Source: Nitrosopumilus sp.
GTDB taxonomy: Archaea; Thermoproteota; Nitrososphaeria; Nitrososphaerales; Nitrosopumilaceae
Reading direction: 5' to 3'
NCBI GenBank assembly: GCA_965249555.1
Contig: OZ252243.1
Coordinates: 1,184,001 to 1,248,000 of the forward strand
DNA length: 64,000 bases
Part shown: piece after piece, positions 570 to 59,959 of the stretch
Position numbering within the stretch: position 1 is the stretch's first letter
Layout of the letters: every line of letters begins with the position of its first letter
Made by a program: the position numbers and the translations under genes
The notes under the pieces: model-generated
What the model was told of the DNA's origin: nothing
What the model saw: the letters and a program-made list of their open reading frames with translations, nothing else
The model's database searches: none

Positions 570-1067
570 TTAATTATTAAAAAAATGACAGATAAGAGTT
601 CCAGATAACGAAATCACAGAAATAATCATACAAATTAATGCTATTCGTAAATATCTAAATTTTTCACTTTGAATATCTGCTATACTGTAAATATTATCTA
701 AAAAATCTTGTAATATGTTTTCGACAGTCATCATTTGTACCCTTTTTCTATATTCTTCTTTTGTTTGTTGAGTTATAGATTTGTAAAAAATTATACTTTC
801 AAATTGAGTTTTTTGAGTAATTCTAGGAAAGATGACTAGGAATGAGAAAAAAATAGTGGCACTCAGGAACCCTATCGTGGTTATTAATCCAAATATAAGA
901 TATTTGTCCAAATTTATTTTCTCAGAAAACACTAAAAGACCCATGATGATTCCTGCTGAACCTAAAATCAATCCTGCCTTTGTGTCTGCAAAATTTATCA
1001 GATCTACATTATGTTGGAGGATTGATTTTACAAGTTCAATTTTTTCATCCATTGTATCTTTACTCAT
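570..1067 (-). CDS. pycTM: Pycsar-type transmembrane effector (PycTM/DUF5706-like)
   Basis: NFADTKAG motif, two TM helices, FPR...SIIFY..I, K.R.LR.A and a C-terminal TM; coupled to the upstream cyclase (TAATG overlap). Confidence 0.8.
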   Translation of the reverse strand: MSKDTMDEKIELVKSILQHNVDLINFADTKAGLILGSAGIIMGLLVFSEKINLDKYLIFGLITTIGFLSATIFFSFLVIFPRITQKTQFESIIFYKSITQQTKEEYRKRVQMMTVENILQDFLDNIYSIADIQSEKFRYLRIALICMIISVISLSGTLICHFFNN

Positions 1068-1798
1068 TAATTATATCCATTCCAATGTGCACTATAATGA
1101 TAAAATCTATACTTTTTGTTAGTTGCAATATCCACCCACTCAAAGTCATCTCTATTGTTTTGCATAGTGCAATACGATTGTTCCATTTGAGATAATTCCG
1201 AATATACAGAATCACCTAAAAATATTTGATGCTCTCCAGCAAATTCTTCTAATTGTTTTGCTATGCTTACTTCATTACCAACTAAAGTTAATTGATTCAT
1301 TCCTTGTACACCTACACGTGCAACCCATATGTTCCCATAATCTAATCCAATAGAACATGAAAAACGAGGTAACTTTATTGAGTCAAGATATGCATTTATT
1401 GCATAATTAATTTCAGTTAAAATTGTCAATCCACAATCTATTGCGTTTGAAATTGCTTTTTCTTTACTTATTCCCACTCCAAATAAGGCTGTAATTCCAT
1501 CTCCAACATATTTTTCTATGAATCCATCATAATCTCTGATTACATAAGTTAATTCTGAAAGATAAATGTTAAGAAATCGTAGTTTCTCATCATTAGATAA
1601 ATTCCCTGTTAGTTTTTTAAAATTATTCATATCGATATGCATTACTACAAGTCCAAATTCTTTGGCTTCCCCTAATCTCATGTCATCAATTTTTGGTATA
1701 GTTTTTCCTGATGTAATGTCATCAAATTCTCGATCACAATCAAACTGTTTTACTCTATTTTTGGCTTCAATTATTGTGTTATTATTATTCCATGGCAT
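1067..1798 (-). CDS. pycC: Class III nucleotide cyclase, PycC-like
   Basis: HIDMNNF (first metal Asp), EKYVGDG (second Asp), SIGLDYG, LVGNEV; operon with a PycTM-like gene. Confidence 0.8.
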   Translation of the reverse strand: MPWNNNNTIIEAKNRVKQFDCDREFDDITSGKTIPKIDDMRLGEAKEFGLVVMHIDMNNFKKLTGNLSNDEKLRFLNIYLSELTYVIRDYDGFIEKYVGDGITALFGVGISKEKAISNAIDCGLTILTEINYAINAYLDSIKLPRFSCSIGLDYGNIWVARVGVQGMNQLTLVGNEVSIAKQLEEFAGEHQIFLGDSVYSELSQMEQSYCTMQNNRDDFEWVDIATNKKYRFYHYSAHWNGYN

Positions 1799-2238
1799 AT
1801 GCGTAGAGTAAAACTATGTTCTTAATTAGTATGAGTCATTAGTATTCAATCTTTTAAAAAATTGAAATATGAACTTGTATACAAATTATCAGAAATTGTT
1901 TAATGTGTTTAGAGGCCACTCTTAACATGGATACTATTGAAAATAAGAAAGGTCCTAATGGAGAATCCAGCAAAAAGTCAGGTAAACCATCAGGCCGATA
2001 GAGCTGGAATTGAGATTAAAGGGGATAACAAATGGTTAACCATAATCCAAAACGCCTCACTCTATAATTAAAATTCTATTAGAATAGTAAAATAGTTATA
2101 TGATTATTCTGTGTATCAAAATTAACTTGAGTTTGGCTTGTCTTTGCCTGTGATTTGCTATCACAATTAAGACAAAAAATGAAGCCTTATACTCCTATCG
2201 GGCATAAGGTAGATTCTTTTTATTTTAAAAAAATTAAT

Positions 2239-2321
2239 GCTACGGTACGCAAGTCTGGTATGCGGGAAGACTTCTAATCTTCTGCCCGATAGGTTCGGGG
2301 ATTCGAATCCCTCTCGTAGCG
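2239..2321 (+). tRNA. Class II (long V-arm) tRNA-like gene, anticodon TCT (Arg) on a Ser-like body
   Basis: Acceptor GCTACGG/TCGTAGC, D-stem CGC/GCG, anticodon arm GAAGA-CTTCTAA-TCTTC, 14-nt variable region, TTCGAAT loop with an A53-C61 mismatch. Confidence 0.75.
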
Positions 2322-9309: not shown

Positions 9310-10635
9310 ATGGATGAAACTGTTCTCAATATTGGATTTGATGATACTGATTCTCCTAAAGGAATGTGTACCACATTTCTAGCATACAAAATTGTTGATT
9401 TACTTCAAAAACAGGACGCTGAATTTCTTGATTTTCCAAGATTAATTCGATTTAATCCTAATATTCCATGGAAAACTCGTGGTAATGGAGCAGTTTCAAT
9501 CAGAATAAAGACTAAAAATCCTTCTAAGATAAAAAATCAAATTAAAAATCTTGTTTCAAGATACTCTGATGTTAAAAATGGGGCAAATCCTGGTTTAGTA
9601 TTTTTTGAAAGTGATGCAATTCCTACTGAGTTTACTAATTTTAGTAACTTAGCTTTGTGGCAATTAATTAATAGAAACAATGCAAAAAAATTTGCCAAAA
9701 AAAATGATCTTGAATTTTTCTATCAAGGAAATGGTCAAGGACTTGTTGGTGCAATTGGTGCAATAGGGTATGATTTTCAAGATCATACCTTAGAACTTTT
9801 AAGTTATCGTAAAAGAAAAAAATTTGGAAAAGAAAGAAAACTTTCTGCTTCAAGTGTAAAAATTATGCAGGAAAAAACTTTGCCAAATACGTTTAATAGT
9901 TTTGATACAAAAAAAGGACGAATTTTAATTACTCCGCATGGCCCTGATCCTGTATTTTATGGTGTTAGAGGTGAAAATGTAAATTCATTATTGTATGCTA
10001 CAAAAATTCTGAAAAGTGATGAAAAATTAGATGGTTACATGATCTTCAAATCTAATCAAGGAACTGGAGATCATTTGAAAAATGAATTAAATTTTGAAAA
10101 TATGAAACCTTATGCTTCTGGAAAAATCACCGGAATTGTATCAGATACACCAAAAATTGTCAAAGGCGGACATGTCTTTTTTAAAATTTTCTCTCAAAGT
10201 CATGAATTTTGGTGTGCAGTTTACAAACCGACAGGAATCTCATCTGTTGCTCTGAATTTGATTAAAGGAGACAAAATATGTGTCGGTGGAGGAGTTCGAA
10301 AGGCATCTAAAAAATTTCCTCGAATCATTAATCTCGAATTTATTGATATCATTCACCTTGAAAAGAATCTTTCAAAATCTAATCCAATTTGCAAAAAATG
10401 TAACAAAAACATGAAATCCAAAGGTCAGAATCAAGGATTTCAGTGTATTCGATGTGGAAAAAAAGCTTCTAAAAAAATAACTATTGAAATTTCAAGAAAG
10501 ATCAGAAAACAACTGTATATTCCAAAAATGTCTGCACATAGACACCTAACAAGACCTTTGCAACGAATTGGAATTTCTAACAAAATCTCAAAATTTGATA
10601 AATCTCTTTCATGGTTTTGCGTTTATAGAAACTAA
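9310..10635 (+). CDS. tiaS: tRNA(Ile2) agmatidine synthetase TiaS
   Basis: GFDDTDS..GMCTT, NPNIPWKTRGNGA, PHGPDPVFYGVRG, C-terminal Zn ribbon, RHLTRP. Confidence 0.95.
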   Translation: MDETVLNIGFDDTDSPKGMCTTFLAYKIVDLLQKQDAEFLDFPRLIRFNPNIPWKTRGNGAVSIRIKTKNPSKIKNQIKNLVSRYSDVKNGANPGLVFFESDAIPTEFTNFSNLALWQLINRNNAKKFAKKNDLEFFYQGNGQGLVGAIGAIGYDFQDHTLELLSYRKRKKFGKERKLSASSVKIMQEKTLPNTFNSFDTKKGRILITPHGPDPVFYGVRGENVNSLLYATKILKSDEKLDGYMIFKSNQGTGDHLKNELNFENMKPYASGKITGIVSDTPKIVKGGHVFFKIFSQSHEFWCAVYKPTGISSVALNLIKGDKICVGGGVRKASKKFPRIINLEFIDIIHLEKNLSKSNPICKKCNKNMKSKGQNQGFQCIRCGKKASKKITIEISRKIRKQLYIPKMSAHRHLTRPLQRIGISNKISKFDKSLSWFCVYRN

Positions 10636-52260: not shown

Positions 52261-52890
52261 TTATGAATCCCTTTTCTTAATTGCCTCTTTTTTTCCATCT
52301 GGCAAACTGTCAAAAATATCATCTATAATTTTTCCTCTGGTATGAGCCCAATCAGAAATATAATTTACAATCTCAAACAACTTGGTTGCTGTGTTTACAT
52401 CATCTCTCAAATCCATTTCTAAAGGGTGTACTGCTTGTCCACCAATCACTCTGACAGAATCTAACGCTTTTATCATTCTATCCTCTAGTCCTTGCTCTGC
52501 CAATTTTTTTATTTTTTCATTCAAATCTTTACCTGTCGCTTTTTTCTCATTACATATCTTTTCAATACACAATCTCAATAATACACACGCTGACCTTGGA
52601 GAACGTGAAATTATGTCTCGCGCTTCATTGTAATCAATTTTTATTTCATCAGTCATATCTGGGTTAGGCATTGGTGCATTACCTGTTGATGGATAAATCA
52701 TATTTTCTTCTTTCCAAATTGTAATGTCTCTACATCGTCTACAATGTCCAACCATGAAGTTATTAGCATTAACAGAATTTACATACTGACCTGTTCTTAT
52801 TACATTCGTCCAAGATTGATCAGAATATGATCCACAGTTTGGACAATGAAATGCATCTAGATTTACAGCAGGTTGAGTGAATTCAGTCAT
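52261..52890 (-). CDS. DUF4145 (HEPN-like) protein with N-terminal Zn ribbon
   Basis: CPNC/CRRC; DY.EA..I...SPR.A..LLR..IE; R.IG..AVH. Confidence 0.8.
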   Translation of the reverse strand: MTEFTQPAVNLDAFHCPNCGSYSDQSWTNVIRTGQYVNSVNANNFMVGHCRRCRDITIWKEENMIYPSTGNAPMPNPDMTDEIKIDYNEARDIISRSPRSACVLLRLCIEKICNEKKATGKDLNEKIKKLAEQGLEDRMIKALDSVRVIGGQAVHPLEMDLRDDVNTATKLFEIVNYISDWAHTRGKIIDDIFDSLPDGKKEAIKKRDS

Positions 52891-53649: not shown

Positions 53650-53755
53650 AACTACCTTAAGATAATTCTATTATATAATTTCTTTTCATATATCCATTTA
53701 AGGTATAGTATTATATATGGGTTGAACACATAGGTTGAACACATAGATATGATAT

Positions 53756-53841
53756 GGTGAGTTTATCTAGAATGGTAAGATGTCGGGCTTATGACCCGAT
53801 TGTTGTAAGAGACATCGTGGGTTCAAATCCCACACTCACCG
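53756..53841 (+). tRNA. Class II (long V-arm) tRNA gene, anticodon TAT (Ile) on a Ser/Leu-like body
   Basis: Acceptor GGTGAGT/ACTCACC plus G73; D-stem ATCT/AGAT; TCGGG-CTTATGA-CCCGA; 17-nt variable region; GTGGG-TTCAAAT-CCCAC. Confidence 0.88.
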
Positions 53842-53875
53842 CATCTTTTCATTCTATATTAATTGAGAGGTCTTA

Positions 53876-55120
53876 GGTTTTCCCATACGAAATCATCTCC
53901 AACCCTACTGAGGACACTTCCTAGTGTGCTTTGCTGAATCAGGACATCTCAGATATGCCTTGCATCTTATACTTTCGTTGTGTCAGTTCATGATTTTGTG
54001 TACGATATACTTTCAGAGTTAGCATGTACCCGGATTATTGCAAGCATCCGGTCTTGCAGCTGCCACCTTTGCCTTTTGTTTTCCTCTTCTCTTTGCAATT
54101 CTGAAATAGAATGATCCCATTCTTTCATCAAATCGTACTGTAGTTGCAGCCTCTACCATTGCGTTACGTAACCATGCAGAACCCCTCTTTGTTATTCCGC
54201 CTCCTCGGTGCACATCTGCACTGTCCCTGTGCGACGGTGCAAGTCCTGCATATGAGACTAGTTTTTCTGCTGTTGCAAATCTGCTGATGTCAACTATCTC
54301 TGAAATTATTGTCAATGCCGTGACATAGTTTATTCCAGGAATGGTCATCAGTAGTCTGGTTTTCCCATCCTCATTGCTGCAATCTTTATCTCAATTGTGT
54401 TGATCTGTTTTTGCATCATATCTATGGTATCAAGATATGCATCCATTGCCATTCTATCAGATTAATTTCATGCAACCATCGTACTCCTTTCTGCGAGAAT
54501 GTCTTTGTGGGTATAATCATATTTTGCAAGTATTGCATAAATCATGTTTTTGTGTTTTGATACATTTCGCACGCGATTCAGTCTGGTTCTTACCAGACTG
54601 TATAGATCTCTATAGTATTTTTCTGGTACGAATGAGCTGTACACCATGTCTGCTCTTAGCAAGTCTGCCAATACGTCTGAATCAAGTTTGTCGTTTTTTA
54701 GCTTTGCCTGTGCAATTATCTTGGTCTTTGCAGGATGTGTAAGAATTGTATCAATTCCATGGTCTTCTAGTGTGTCATGTAGTCTGATCCAATAGTTTGC
54801 AGTTGATTCGCATACTGCCTGTATGTCATTACCATATGTCTTTTTGATATGTTTGATAAAACCCATTATTCCATTTGTGGTATTATCAAAGCTTGTCTGC
54901 TCTAGCTTCTTTCTGGATTCCCGTTTTATTGTTGCAACACATTTCTTCTTGTGAACATCAATTCCTATGCTGATCATATTATCACCTCCTTTTTGATCAA
55001 ATTGCCTGATCTAGCGGAATGCTCCCATTCACCATCTATGTGGTATTTTGTTTTCCGCTCACTTTGAGTTAGTCTGTCAAACGCCCTTGTACATGGCAAT
55101 ATTCATTCAACTCTCAGGCC
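53876..55120 (-). mobile_element. IS110-family element (type B), frameshifted, with upstream non-coding end
   Basis: IGIDVHKK, KNDKLDS, TIPGI, SYAGLAPS; SD AGGAGGTGA before ATG 54977. Confidence 0.9.
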
Positions 55121-55165
55121 TAACAGTAGGTATACATCACAAGATATGAAAAAGATTTCGTATAA

Positions 55166-55984
55166 CGTCTGTCAATATCTGCAATTTCTGCTGCAATAAC
55201 TAGTGACGAGTAATCACCAATTCCTGGTATTGATTTTATTATCATGGCATCAGGACTGGTCTTTACAGCAGCATACACTCTTGAATTAATATCTTCAATT
55301 TGCAGATTAAGATGGCTTATCTGTCGTACAAATCCATCTATGCGATAGTCACCCAGGGAGGTAAGTCTTTTGTTGTATGTTACAGTGAACGTGACTCCTG
55401 GTATCTTGATTCCCTCCTGTAACAAAATTCCATGAACAGAATTTTTGAGAGATGTTCTCCACTGAACGAGTTTTTTTCTGTATCTTACCAGCTGGCGATG
55501 TTTTACTATCTTTTTGTTTGGAATATGGCATGTTGCAATGTATCCCCCGCGCAAAAGATCTGCCAGTATCCTGGCATCAATCTTGTCTGTTTTTTTTGAT
55601 GCAGCTATTGCCTTTGTAAGATACGGGTTTGAGAGTGTTACGTTTTTGTATCCTAATTCATCTGTAAGAAACCTATACGTGCCATACCAGACTGATGATG
55701 ATTCCATGACAATATTGGCATGAATTGGTATGTCTGTAAAATGTTTCCTGATTGATTCATGAGTGTTCTCAACTTTTATGTTTTGTAATATTTTTCCGTC
55801 ATTATCCATTGTTGCTACTTGAAGAAATTTCTTGTGCAAGTCAATGCCAACATACATGCTCTTGTCTTTCCCCCTAATCTGTTTCTTTGGACTTTTCTTG
55901 GAATACGATGGATTACGACTCCTGGACCTGAGTTCATTCCCTATGCTATCTGATTTCCTTCTTTTTGTATTCACATATAGCTAT
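55166..55984 (-). mobile_element. IS110 type A, copy 3, 3'-truncated
   Basis: Homologous to copies 1 and 2; similarity ends after AEIADIDR. Confidence 0.9.
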
Positions 55985-57970: not shown

Positions 57971-58570
57971 ATGAACAAAACCGTAGTTTTTGTAAACGGT
58001 AAAAAACATGAGCTGACTTCTAATCAAGTTTTAGTTGGAGAACTGATTACATTAGGAGGCGGTAAACCTGGTGAGTACGAACTTCAAAAACGTAAAGGAC
58101 AGGGAGGACCAGTAACAAAAACTTTCCAAGATCCTAATCAAGTGATTGAAGTAAAAAACGGAGATCACTTTACAACCAGATTTACTGGATCCATCAATCC
58201 AGCTGCGGAGGTAACTCCCTCCTCAGCTATTTTTGGGAAATTTCTCACAAAAAATGGAATCAAGTATGAAGTTAGAAAAATTGCAGATAAGTCAATTTAC
58301 ATTTTTGAATATAAAATTCCTAATGGAGAATATACAAATATTTCAATTACTTTAGGTCTTCCAATTTCAGAAGATTTTCCAATTACTGCACCATATGGAT
58401 TTCATATCAAAAAAGATCATAATTTTAAGGAGAACATAACAAATGTGAATTCTAGTCCATTAGGTGGAGATTGGGAGTTTTGGAGTAGAGAAGTTACAAA
58501 TTGGGATGTAAATCATCGTGGTTCTCAATACTACCTAGATAATGTAAACCGATGTTTGGAGTTGAAGTAA
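57971..58570 (+). CDS. Multi-ubiquitin-type Ubl fused to a prokaryotic E2-like domain
   Basis: Ubl: VFVNGKKH...V.V.EL..L...Y.L...VKNGDHFTT; E2 (Prok-E2_E-like): Y.IP.G, DFP.TAPYGFH, W.FWSR...W. Confidence 0.75.
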   Translation: MNKTVVFVNGKKHELTSNQVLVGELITLGGGKPGEYELQKRKGQGGPVTKTFQDPNQVIEVKNGDHFTTRFTGSINPAAEVTPSSAIFGKFLTKNGIKYEVRKIADKSIYIFEYKIPNGEYTNISITLGLPISEDFPITAPYGFHIKKDHNFKENITNVNSSPLGGDWEFWSREVTNWDVNHRGSQYYLDNVNRCLELK

Positions 58571-59959
58571 ATGGAATATAATGTAGCTATGACTGAATCT
58601 GCCAACAAAGAACTTTCTGATTTCTTATTAGATGATCTGAATGATGAAGAAATTTGTTTTGCAACTTGGTCACCATCAAACGGAAAAGATAGAATCACTA
58701 TACTACTAAATGACATTATCTATCCTGAAACTGGAGATAGAGTTCGTCATGGAAATGTTTCTGCCATGCCACAATATGTTGATCGAGTAAAAGAATTTGC
58801 TCGAAAAGAAAAGAAAGGATTAATCATGATTCATACACATCCAAGTGCTACTGGTTCTCAAGGAGTTTCAATTCCTGATTTACATTATGAACAAGATGTT
58901 TTGTCACGTGAAGTTTTTGGAATAACTAGATTGCCATTTGTTGGAATGACACTCTCAGGTGATGATGTGTGGAGTGCTAGGTGTTATCCACAACCATACA
59001 AAATCATTTGGTGTTCTGCAGTTCGAATAGTTGGCAAAAGACTAATCATCCATTATAAGTCCCAGAGTTATTCACATTCAAATGAAAAACTAGTCAGGAC
59101 AACCAGTATCTGGGGAGAGCAAAAACAAGAAGAAATTATGAGGTTAAAAGTTGGCATTATTGGGGTTGGAAGCATAGGTGCTGCGGTGGGTGAAATATTA
59201 GCCCGAATGGGAATTGGCAAAATTTTATTGATGGACTATGACCTAGTTAAGAAACATAATTTTGACAGGATGCTGTATGTCACTGATCATGATGTAAATG
59301 AAAAAAAGGCAGATATTGTTGCAAAAAACCTTAGAATATCTGCTACTAATCCTAACTTTGAATGTGTTACATACTATAGTAGTATTGTAGAAGAAGATGG
59401 TTTCAGAGAAGCATTGAACTGTGATGTATTGTTTAGTTGTGTTGATAGACCCTGGCCAAGACAAGTATTGAATCATTTATCCTATTCCTCATTGATTCCA
59501 GTAATTGATGGAGGTGTAAGTTTCTACATTCCAAATGGAAAATTTGTTCATGGAATGTTTAGAGCACAAACAGTAGGACCAGAACGTGCATGTATGGAAT
59601 GCCTTAATGCCTTTGATGCAGGTCAGGTACAACAGGATCGAGACGGTATTTTTGATGATCCTGAGTATGTAAAAAAACAGGAAACAAACACAAAAACAAG
59701 ACAAAACATCATGCCATTTGTGTTTGGACTTTCCAGTCTTGAAACTATACAGTTTGTTGAACTAACAACAAACATTGGTAACATGGGAGATCTTGGTCAG
59801 CAACCATACAACTATCATCCTGGAGATCTATCACCAATTCACAAAAAATGCATAGATGGTTGCTATTATGTAAAAAATATTGGATTAGGAGAATCATCTA
59901 GACCTTATTTGTCAAATGATTTGTCAAAACAAAGAGAATCTGGGGTTCAAAATGAATAA
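58571..59959 (+). CDS. JAB/MPN+ peptidase fused to a ThiF/E1 adenylation domain
   Basis: E...HTHP...S..D JAMM motif; GVGSIG, D.D.V...NFDR, CVD, DGG, CMEC, C...C. Confidence 0.85.
   Translation: MEYNVAMTESANKELSDFLLDDLNDEEICFATWSPSNGKDRITILLNDIIYPETGDRVRHGNVSAMPQYVDRVKEFARKEKKGLIMIHTHPSATGSQGVSIPDLHYEQDVLSREVFGITRLPFVGMTLSGDDVWSARCYPQPYKIIWCSAVRIVGKRLIIHYKSQSYSHSNEKLVRTTSIWGEQKQEEIMRLKVGIIGVGSIGAAVGEILARMGIGKILLMDYDLVKKHNFDRMLYVTDHDVNEKKADIVAKNLRISATNPNFECVTYYSSIVEEDGFREALNCDVLFSCVDRPWPRQVLNHLSYSSLIPVIDGGVSFYIPNGKFVHGMFRAQTVGPERACMECLNAFDAGQVQQDRDGIFDDPEYVKKQETNTKTRQNIMPFVFGLSSLETIQFVELTTNIGNMGDLGQQPYNYHPGDLSPIHKKCIDGCYYVKNIGLGESSRPYLSNDLSKQRESGVQNE

Follow-up and report, generated by a model that had tools for sequence, protein, structure and literature searches.

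Seryl- and alanyl-tRNA synthetase (SerRS and AlaRS) are the two charging systems that ignore the anticodon. Natural tRNAs in which the charging identity and the anticodon disagree are rare; they bear on the drift of the genetic code and on whether cells or selfish elements mistranslate deliberately. In the CTG-clade yeasts, tRNA-Ser(CAG) is a fixed chromosomal gene that decodes a reassigned codon, and archaea without TiaS use an ordinary class I tRNA-Ile(UAU) for AUA. The bacterial allo-tRNAs combine Ser or Ala (G3:U70) identity with non-cognate anticodons, with UAU as the commonest and AGA/AGG-reading and Leu anticodons also found. Toxin-antitoxin systems and transposon-related genes are found in their neighbourhood, and no function has been settled for them (PMC5389517). 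Integrated elements of thaumarchaea use host tRNA genes as targets, with duplicates of the 3' part at the element borders (PMC6563490). The gene studied here encodes a class II tRNA, that is, a tRNA with a long variable (V) region, with the anticodon UAU. It lies in a window of 64,000 nt, the whole stretch of DNA that was analysed (positions 1,184,001 to 1,248,000 of contig OZ252243.1, assembly GCA_965249555.1), of Nitrosopumilus sp. The source genome is one contig of 2.23 Mb with 34.4% GC.

Anatomy and Ser-type body of the UAU tRNA

ARAGORN called three tRNAs in the window, one of them at 53756-53842(+) with the anticodon TAT. Rfam matched RF00005 to 53756-53841(+) with 56.5 bits, against a gathering score of 29 (E 1.6e-9). 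The sequence reads as a canonical 7/5 cloverleaf, in which the acceptor (GGTGAGT/ACTCACC, 7 bp), D (ATCT/AGAT, loop of 9 nt), anticodon (TCGGG/CCCGA, loop CTTATGA) and T (GTGGG-TTCAAAT-CCCAC) stems are all fully paired. The V region of 17 nt holds a 4-bp stem (TGTT/GACA), and no CCA is encoded. The paired stems, the 17-nt V-arm, G73 and the CUUAUGA loop that the initial annotation had read from the letters were thus all recovered by ARAGORN, Rfam and our own reading. When the region 53650-53909 was compared with the contigs of three DNA runs, which come from one study and are possibly the assembly's own source, 0 differences were found. The bare tRNA sequence was also folded. Its minimum free energy (MFE) fold of -34.3 kcal/mol is not the cloverleaf (-27.3), and CUUAUGAC in the anticodon-loop region (53788-53795) pairs there with GUUGUAAG of the tRNA's own V-arm (53802-53809). 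A gap of 2.5-12 kcal/mol between the MFE fold and the cloverleaf was seen in 16/16 sequences folded, including one genuine Ser tRNA, and the alternative fold of the window tRNA was not conserved in the relatives folded.

For a comparison of the tRNA bodies, the class II tRNAs of the genome were aligned to one covariance model. The four Ser tRNAs of the source genome share G73 and a 14-nt V region, and their D-loop has 9 nt except in Ser-CGA, where it has 7; the four Leu tRNAs compared have A73, a D-loop of 11 nt and a V region of 13 nt. Set against them, the UAU tRNA has G73, a V region of 16-17 nt and a D-loop of 9 nt, the length found in Ser-GCU, Ser-UGA and Ser-GGA. Its V-arm leaves 1 nt unpaired before the stem and 2 after it, as in the Ser tRNAs, and G30-C40 is present. 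Hence it has both the V region of more than 10 nt forming a stem-loop that defines class II and the Ser discriminator with a Ser-type V-arm and a short D-loop. The anticodon is not that of a Ser isoacceptor (NGA or GCU). Neither the marks of archaeal tRNA-Leu (A73 and the Leu-type D-loop with the extra 20a/20b) nor those of canonical tRNA-Ile (class I, A73, A37 and GAU or modified CAU) were found in the UAU tRNA, which has G37; the host's own tRNA-Ile(GAU), at 1294708, belongs to class I and has both A73 and A37. For archaeal SerRS, G73 and G30-C40 are strong elements, and for LeuRS of Haloferax volcanii G73 is an antideterminant (PMC9976931); Table 1 of the same source lists A73 for bacterial Ile and archaeal Phe identity. 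The body of the UAU tRNA is Ser-like and not Leu-like. The Ser identity proposed earlier therefore holds as a set of marks (G73, Ser-type D-loop and Ser-type V-arm) when measured on the genome's own Ser and Leu tRNAs.

A mobile family of tRNAs with mismatched anticodons

A pattern taken from the 3' half of the UAU tRNA matched contigs of Nitrosopumilus sp. that hold tRNAs of 87-91 nt with GAU or GAA anticodons. A covariance model (R1) was built from six close members and run over the 151 genomes of the window's genus. Ordinary Ser tRNAs scored about 70 bits in all 151 genomes, and family-level scores of 78-104 bits were reached in nine. The UAU tRNA itself scored 103.6 bits, with the top members at 101-104. 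The relatives consist of the top loci and 20 matches chosen by score and odd length from 1,695, and are not a random sample. From 17 of the 151 genomes 40 intact class II tRNAs with 16 acceptor strands were collected, which is a lower bound. Left out of the 40 were 10 genuine Ser or Leu tRNAs and 12 others, namely degenerate copies, fragments, a chimera, class I tRNAs, a weak match and a bacterial-type tRNA on a viral contig.

G73 is present in 38 of the 40 tRNAs and a Ser anticodon in none. The anticodons are GAA (18), GAU (9), CAG (5), UAU (4) and UAA, UAG, CAU and UCU (1 each). The acceptor GGTGAGT is combined with GAU, GAA and UAU anticodons, and one body with varied anticodons is what is expected if charging ignores the anticodon. 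The GTCAGGG scaffold carries GAA in 9/9 members despite four different stems. The anticodon triplet is kept and biased, while the neighbouring loop positions and the stems vary. Two of the three further UAU members (L071 and L072) come from one genome and have the identical loop CUUAUGA; the third (L081) has a body almost identical to a genuine Ser tRNA. CAG together with G73 was found in L068, L079, L083, L084 and L091. The UAU case is therefore not unique. The initial annotation had named homologs with Leu or Ser anticodons throughout as a result that would speak against it, and the relatives carry GAU, GAA, UAU, CAU and other anticodons instead. A private mutation or a sequencing error is excluded by the UAU relatives and by the agreement with the DNA-run contigs.

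Among the six close members 98.7% of the alignment cells in the stems are paired, and six pairs in the D, anticodon and V stems have changed on both sides. In the V stem, 2/5 pairs have changed on both sides among the relatives, and the covariation score of the six-member alignment was reached by 0/500 shuffles. The structure of the family is intact and under selection. An anticodon-loop intron of 14 nt is present in three members (L077, L316 and L115, the last from another genus). We had considered that the V-arm is a misread intron. This was ruled out, since its stem-loop covaries and has the Ser-type layout, and the real introns of the family lie in the anticodon loop.

Members were also seen in other genera of the same family. 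Among the 12 top loci fetched from a scan of the order, the matches from other families were ordinary Ser tRNAs. Pattern scans of IMG/VR for virus-borne copies gave no Nitrosopumilus-type member, and a metagenome scan gave one match (L114), where ARAGORN gives no tRNA. Two viral contigs hold tRNAs of other types: L013 (IMGVR_UViG_2920785022_000002) a bacterial-type class II G73 tRNA with GAA and an encoded CCA, and L222 (IMGVR_UViG_3300014208_000079) an Ala-type body (G3·U70, A73) with the Trp anticodon CCA. Taken together, there is a multi-scaffold family in Nitrosopumilus-like genomes, and the window copy is one member of it.

A second set of mismatched tRNAs has the marks of alanine identity. 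Nine tRNAs of the source genome have G3·U70, A73 and an acceptor (GGGC...GTCC-A) near that of tRNA-Ala, with the anticodons GAA (5), AAG (3, with A34) and UAG (1); several have C33. As far as is known, archaea otherwise avoid A34 anticodons. A model of this set gave family-level matches in 12 of the 151 genomes. When 17 of the loci were read, 13 were found to hold 14 mismatched tRNAs (GAA 6, AAG 4, GAG 2, GUC 2), three had an ordinary Ala-CGC and one a GAA tRNA with a different acceptor end. Both anticodon-blind identities, Ser and Ala, have been fitted with Phe and Leu anticodons, and this second set supports the reading that the mismatch is the point. In the source genome, with 62 ARAGORN calls of which a few are spurious, we count at least 15 mismatched tRNAs of two identity types. 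The earlier picture of two such tRNAs in two islands was too small.

The chromosomal surroundings were compared between 12 close loci. Two of these belong to the source genome (the window and a truncated copy at 2195 kb), L070 contributes two more, and the others are L071-L078. The neighbours differ between genomes (RNA polymerase, nuo, purEK, restriction enzymes, TruD), and two genes recur beside the tRNA. A small open reading frame (ORF) of 53-61 amino acids (MTRWKKDE...IPKPI...), facing away from the tRNA and 80-95 nt upstream of it, is present in 8/12 loci. A co-oriented transposase gene of about 370 amino acids with SWIM zinc finger, HTH and DDE_Tnp_IS240 domains (SWIM-DDE) follows 40-70 nt downstream in 7/12; the gene is complete in L071, L072, L076 and L077, while only remnants of it are left in L075, L078 and the 2195-kb copy. 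The whole three-part unit of 1.5 kb occurs twice in one genome at different sites, and the two copies are 84% identical.

The small ORF was found in 57 of 251 genomes of the family and in 17 of its 27 genera, with up to 22 copies per genome; this count includes three unpublished genomes (G352, G466 and G484, one match each), and is 54 of 248 when they are set aside. We looked at 28 small-ORF loci, with two loci of the unpublished genomes omitted. About 17 have the small ORF beside the DDE gene and no tRNA, so that the base element is a two-gene unit like an insertion sequence (IS), of which a subset has a tRNA in the divergent intergenic region. Five of the 28 have a class II G73 tRNA (GAU, GAG twice, GAA with an intron, and GAA-like); in four the anticodon has the form N-A-N, and the fifth (L311) is ambiguous in ARAGORN. 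Examples of the unit are L302 (source genome 665842-667203) and L071 (6782-8288). A palindrome of the ACGTACGT type lies in the divergent intergenic region. No convincing pair of terminal inverted repeats was found in L071 or L072, and L302, the one copy examined for it, has a weak candidate (17 nt, 82%). The product of the small ORF had no Pfam match and no PDB sequence match below E 0.37. Its AlphaFold model is weak, with a predicted local distance difference test score (pLDDT) of 68.3, and Foldseek gave no hit at E <= 0.001. Its motif may be of the AbrB/MazE/SpoVT kind, the name that one of its homologs bears in one source.

The tRNAs are also found in arrays and as truncated copies. In the array L068/L069 (G135:C2:186001-226000), 9-10 class II G73 tRNAs with GAA, GAU or CAG, two of them degenerate, are spread over 38 kb and alternate with restriction-modification genes (HaeIII, MmeI, Eco57I-like, BglII and several methylases); DUF3800 is present as well. 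In two genomes there are truncated copies whose start points in the D-loop differ by about 1 nt at most. In the source genome, an IS110 end or a DDE fragment is found no more than 3 kb away from 12/15 mismatched tRNAs, compared with 5/44 ordinary tRNAs and 12.5% of random positions; these figures are not a formal test, because the copies are linked. These observations show that the UAU family is mobile, as the initial annotation had supposed: the neighbours vary, an IS-like module accompanies the tRNA, and units are duplicated, arrayed and truncated.

Two further structures were noted among these loci. L111 (source genome 2195290-2195442, minus strand) is a chimeric tRNA gene: its 5' part, as far as the T-loop, comes from a GTCAGGG-type GAA tRNA, and its 3' part, from the D-loop on, from a GAU member; an N-terminal fragment of a DDE gene follows it. 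A cassette of 1.1 kb with a ParB_N domain is 97% identical between L172:4930-6046 and L179:6175-7291, and lies 103 nt after an Ala-type GAA tRNA in one case and 337 nt after a Ser-type GAA tRNA in the other.

The window copy, its neighbours and the host background

The coordinates of the features are collected in Table 1. In the window copy the small ORF is missing from its place 80-95 nt upstream, and so is the DDE gene from its place 40-70 nt downstream. The sequence upstream has no relation to that of the relatives. Their similar TATA-like box lies at about -24 to -33. Downstream, the first 23-30 nt of the 3' flank, all that is left of the usual spacer, are homologous to the spacer before the SWIM-DDE gene in 8/11 related loci compared, and in L074 and both L070 copies the match ends at the 3' end of the tRNA. 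The flank is followed by IS110-family elements. The IS110 end repeat occurs 33 times in the genome, and its window copy starts at 53875-53881, 33-39 nt after the UAU tRNA; the DNA-run contigs break at these elements. An AAA/wHTH protein and an IS66 element also lie around the UAU tRNA. No partial duplicate of the window tRNA that could mark an element border was found in the genome, where the single other match is the GAU-type fragment at 2195 kb. We conclude that the window copy is an orphan of the IS-like module, placed among defence genes and cut off downstream by IS110.

Table 1. Features of the window and of the source genome (window positions, except for the last row, which gives source genome positions)
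Feature	Position	Strand	Basis
Class II tRNA gene, anticodon UAU 53790-53792, V region 53800-53816, G73 at 53841	53756..53841	+	ARAGORN, Rfam, family model R1, sequence
TATA-like box TATTATATAT, 37-46 nt 5' of the UAU tRNA; putative promoter	53709..53718	+	sequence
Tandem duplication, 2 x GGTTGAACACATA, between TATA-like box and UAU tRNA	53720..53745	+	sequence
3' flank with TTTT at 53846-53849	53842..53874	+	pairwise BLAST of flanks, sequence
IS110-family elements, broken transposase ORFs 54019-54348, 54468-54977, 55120-55974	53875..55974	-	BLAST of end repeat, Pfam DEDD_Tnp_IS110 + Transposase_20
PD-T7-4 defence protein (DUF4145), 866 nt upstream of the UAU tRNA	52261..52890	-	PADLOC E 1.1e-72, Pfam DUF4145
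Prok-E2_E protein and ThiF/E1 protein (E1-E2 defence-type pair)	57971..59959	+	Pfam, PADLOC E1-E2
Class II G73 tRNA, anticodon UCU, different scaffold (GCTACGG...)	2239..2321	+	ARAGORN, R1 45 bits
C-terminal fragment of SWIM-DDE transposase gene, 158 nt upstream of the UCU tRNA	1994..2080	+	tblastn
Pycsar system beside the UCU tRNA: PycTM 570-1067, PycC 1067-1798	570..1798	-	Pfam, PADLOC
TiaS, ordinary AUA-decoding route; context, outside the element	9310..10635	+	Pfam TiaS_FLD, TiaS_TCKD, Zn_ribbon_TiaS
Ala-identity mismatched tRNAs (L129-L136 and one more)	58883, 87428, 92747, 506756, 1841925, 1886429, 2194432, 2214900, 2185020		

The second V-arm tRNA to which the initial annotation had pointed, a dissimilar UCU gene, is likewise class II with G73 and has a different scaffold. 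Rfam did not list it at the gathering threshold in the window and gave it 44.5 bits in the whole-genome scan. An HNH gene and IS fragments are further neighbours, and one of these, an IS110 fragment (2324-2620), starts 2 nt after the tRNA. A relative of this tRNA, in L127 (G154), is likewise preceded by a DDE remnant, which ends about 180 nt before it. The defence setting that had been claimed for both tRNAs was borne out, with PD-T7-4 and the E1/E2 pair near the UAU gene and Pycsar near the UCU gene.

The host does not seem to depend on the UAU tRNA for AUA. TiaS is present, as annotated, with three TiaS Pfam domains, ARAGORN lists three CAU tRNA genes in the source genome and there is the class I tRNA-Ile(GAU), so ordinary AUA decoding looks provided for. 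The genome has a single SerRS gene (1280741-1281934). No dedicated extra synthetase was found in it, and the matches of IleRS, ValRS, LeuRS and MetRS size are single. A comparison of AUA and AGA usage between host and viruses had been proposed; its host side shows that these are common codons and not rare ones (AUA 2.24%, AGA 2.09%). AUU makes up 4.78% of codons and UUU 3.28%. We also considered the UAU tRNA as a stand-in for a missing Leu-UAA, and rejected this because the host tRNA-Leu(UAA) is present at about 1290750-1290869 (L107). The latter has two introns, and because of them ARAGORN saw it solely inside a spurious 'tRNA-Asp' call of 2.5 kb. About 550 nt downstream of this tRNA-Leu(UAA) there is a SWIM-DDE gene copy with a frameshift. 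L112 (source genome 331776-331870), a 95-nt tRNA with A73 and the anticodon CAC whose variable region contains an insert of 21 nt, is probably an ordinary tRNA-Val with a non-canonical intron and not a member of the family.

Possible roles and comparison with known systems

We tentatively propose that the UAU tRNA is an IS-borne tRNA that is probably serylated and can read AUA, and is the archaeal counterpart of the bacterial allo-tRNAs; on the sequence evidence this is plausible, if a little short of probable. It would be transcribed from its own TATA-type promoter, and the transcript would be matured and tailed with CCA. The mature tRNA would then be charged with serine by the single host SerRS, which does not recognise the anticodon, and the seryl-tRNA could be delivered to the ribosome, where AUA might be read as Ser. 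The pay-off could be a conditional proteome poison, an addiction device of the element, a low level of ambiguity, or nothing. Several points weigh against this proposal. AUA is common enough that efficient insertion of Ser would be very harmful, which leaves a weak, a conditional or no use. Six allo-tRNA-UAU variants made into amber suppressors were inactive in E. coli (PMC5389517), and the nev-tRNAs gave no detectable mistranslation in worms (PMC4300185). In the window copy G37 replaces the A37 of the host tRNA-Ile(GAU), both module partners are lost, the 13-bp duplication moves the TATA-like box 13 bp farther from the tRNA, and the alternative fold, which pairs the anticodon loop with the V-arm, lies 7 kcal/mol below the cloverleaf. 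The sampling of the relatives was driven by model score and length. Finally, only anticodons for Phe, Leu, Ile, Met and Arg occur, and the UCU scaffold is Arg-only in its 3/3 members (UCU, CCU and UCG); this pattern could equally mean cognate charging that is driven by the anticodon.

Because of this limited choice of anticodons and the Arg-only scaffold, cognate charging stays a rival. The tRNAs would then be recognised by IleRS (UAU/GAU), PheRS (GAA), MetRS (CAU), ArgRS (UCU/CCU/UCG) and LeuRS (Leu anticodons) and would supply extra decoding capacity on mobile DNA, with the UAU copy as a TiaS-independent reader of AUA. The constant GAA of the GTCAGGG scaffold and the heavy use of the codons served agree with this. 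Class I synthetases bind the tRNA with the variable region facing the solvent, and four of the five synthetases involved are class I, so the V-arm might be tolerated. However, G73 stands where the identity lists for bacterial Ile and archaeal Phe have A73 (PMC9976931), and position 37 is G, not A, in the UAU copy and in most of the GAU copies. Anticodons for Ile, Phe and Leu are found on one and the same body, and compensatory changes maintain a V-arm that no Ile or Phe system needs. Moreover, the G3·U70 of the Ala-type set should attract AlaRS whatever the anticodon, and the equally common Lys, Asn and Glu codons are unserved. We therefore consider cognate charging distinctly unlikely. That the tRNA acts as a part of mobile DNA and not in translation, as a recombination or integration site or as a promoter with an RNase P/Z signal that releases the transposase mRNA, stays alive because the tRNA is tied closely to the IS-like unit and because arrays and truncated copies exist. 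The tRNA precedes a co-oriented SWIM-DDE gene by 40-70 nt in four of the 12 loci, with remnants in three more, and two IS families have inserted just after these tRNAs. The shared D-loop start of the truncated copies, the alternation with restriction-modification cassettes and the occurrence of the same ParB_N cassette after both an Ala-type and a Ser-type tRNA point the same way, and the authors who described the allo-tRNAs hold a similar view of allo-tRNA-UAU (PMC5389517). Such a role would not explain why the anticodon triplet is conserved and biased while its loop neighbours and the stems vary, why U33, the 7-nt loops, the T-loop and the GG of the D-loop are canonical, or why introns are retained at the canonical anticodon-loop site. 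In addition, the module does without a tRNA in about 17 of 28 cases, and no partial duplicate of the window tRNA lies at an element end. We regard it as possible, if rather unlikely.

Two other explanations were given very little weight. The tRNA could be a decoy or spare target for anticodon-loop nucleases or other tRNA-directed toxins in conflicts between virus and host or element and host, which would suit the defence islands, the mobile DNA and the conserved anticodon loops. The simplest decoy, however, would duplicate the genuine tRNA-Ile, Phe or Leu, yet the bodies are Ser-type and Ala-type, and no tRNA nuclease gene lies consistently beside the tRNAs in the loci scanned, which makes a decoy very improbable. 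It is just as hard to believe that the window copy is the dead remnant of a module, whatever the rest of the family does. The lost small ORF and DDE gene, the altered promoter spacing and the competing fold would agree with decay, as would the unpaired V-stem position G50-A58 (alignment A2), which leaves a 4-bp stem compared with at least 5 pairs in the other five members. Against decay, the four main stems are fully paired, the R1 score is level with that of the best relatives, and the loop CUUAUGA is identical to that of the intact module copies L071 and L072 in another genome. The serine reading, cognate charging and a non-translational role are not mutually exclusive.

An extension of the serine reading that we think unlikely, and put forward as speculation, is a mobile toolkit of mismatched tRNAs that works as a tRNA-based abortive-infection or addiction mechanism, with the UAU tRNA of the window as one warhead. 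Ser and Ala bodies with Phe, Leu, Ile, Met and Arg anticodons would be carried in the IS-like module and scattered through defence islands. The small ORF would encode a putative DNA-binding regulator, and the tRNAs would be switched on, for example by infection or by loss of the element. Hydrophobic and arginine codons would be recoded to small residues, and protein synthesis would collapse.

Whatever the role, the mismatch is recurrent: Ser and Ala identities have repeatedly been given anticodons for hydrophobic amino acids, on canonical cloverleaves and in a definable mobile module. The host group comprises abundant marine and soil archaea. With cultured relatives, one SerRS and short genes, the system is tractable for asking whether mistranslating tRNAs are weapons, regulators or passengers. 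In annotation, genes of this kind will be taken for tRNA-Ile, Phe, Leu or Arg and will inflate the tRNA counts. Our literature search gave no report of such mismatched tRNAs in archaea, and the main-text passages of the thaumarchaeal survey (PMC6563490), as distinct from its supplementary tables, mention no class II tRNA with a non-Leu/Ser anticodon.

Among the systems described, the ordinary class I tRNA-Ile(UAU) of archaea without TiaS shares the anticodon with the UAU tRNA, which differs in being class II, in having G73 and in lying in a genome with TiaS. The yeast tRNA-Ser(CAG) has a Ser-type body with a Leu anticodon, like the members with CAG and G73; unlike it, the archaeal genes are accessory, patchy and mobile. 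The nematode nev-tRNA-Ile(UAU) is also class II with UAU, occurs beside normal AUA decoding and is conserved with unclear use. The nev-tRNAs are, however, derived from tRNA-Leu, charged with Leu, encoded in animal nuclei and not borne by mobile elements (PMC3333845, PMC4300185), whereas the UAU tRNA has Ser-like features and an archaeal context. At the integration sites of thaumarchaea tRNA genes are likewise tied to integrated elements (PMC6563490), and the difference is that here an accessory tRNA travels together with the element. Of the known kinds, the bacterial allo-tRNA comes closest, as it shares Ser or Ala identity with non-cognate anticodons including UAU and a neighbourhood of mobile elements. 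The allo-tRNAs have an 8/4 or 9/3 arrangement of acceptor and T stem and a D-arm like that of tRNA-Sec (PMC5389517). The UAU tRNA is 7/5, with no pairing possible between its T8 and the C just before the 3' acceptor strand, and its D-arm is ordinary. Furthermore, it is archaeal, and its family rides a defined IS-like module.

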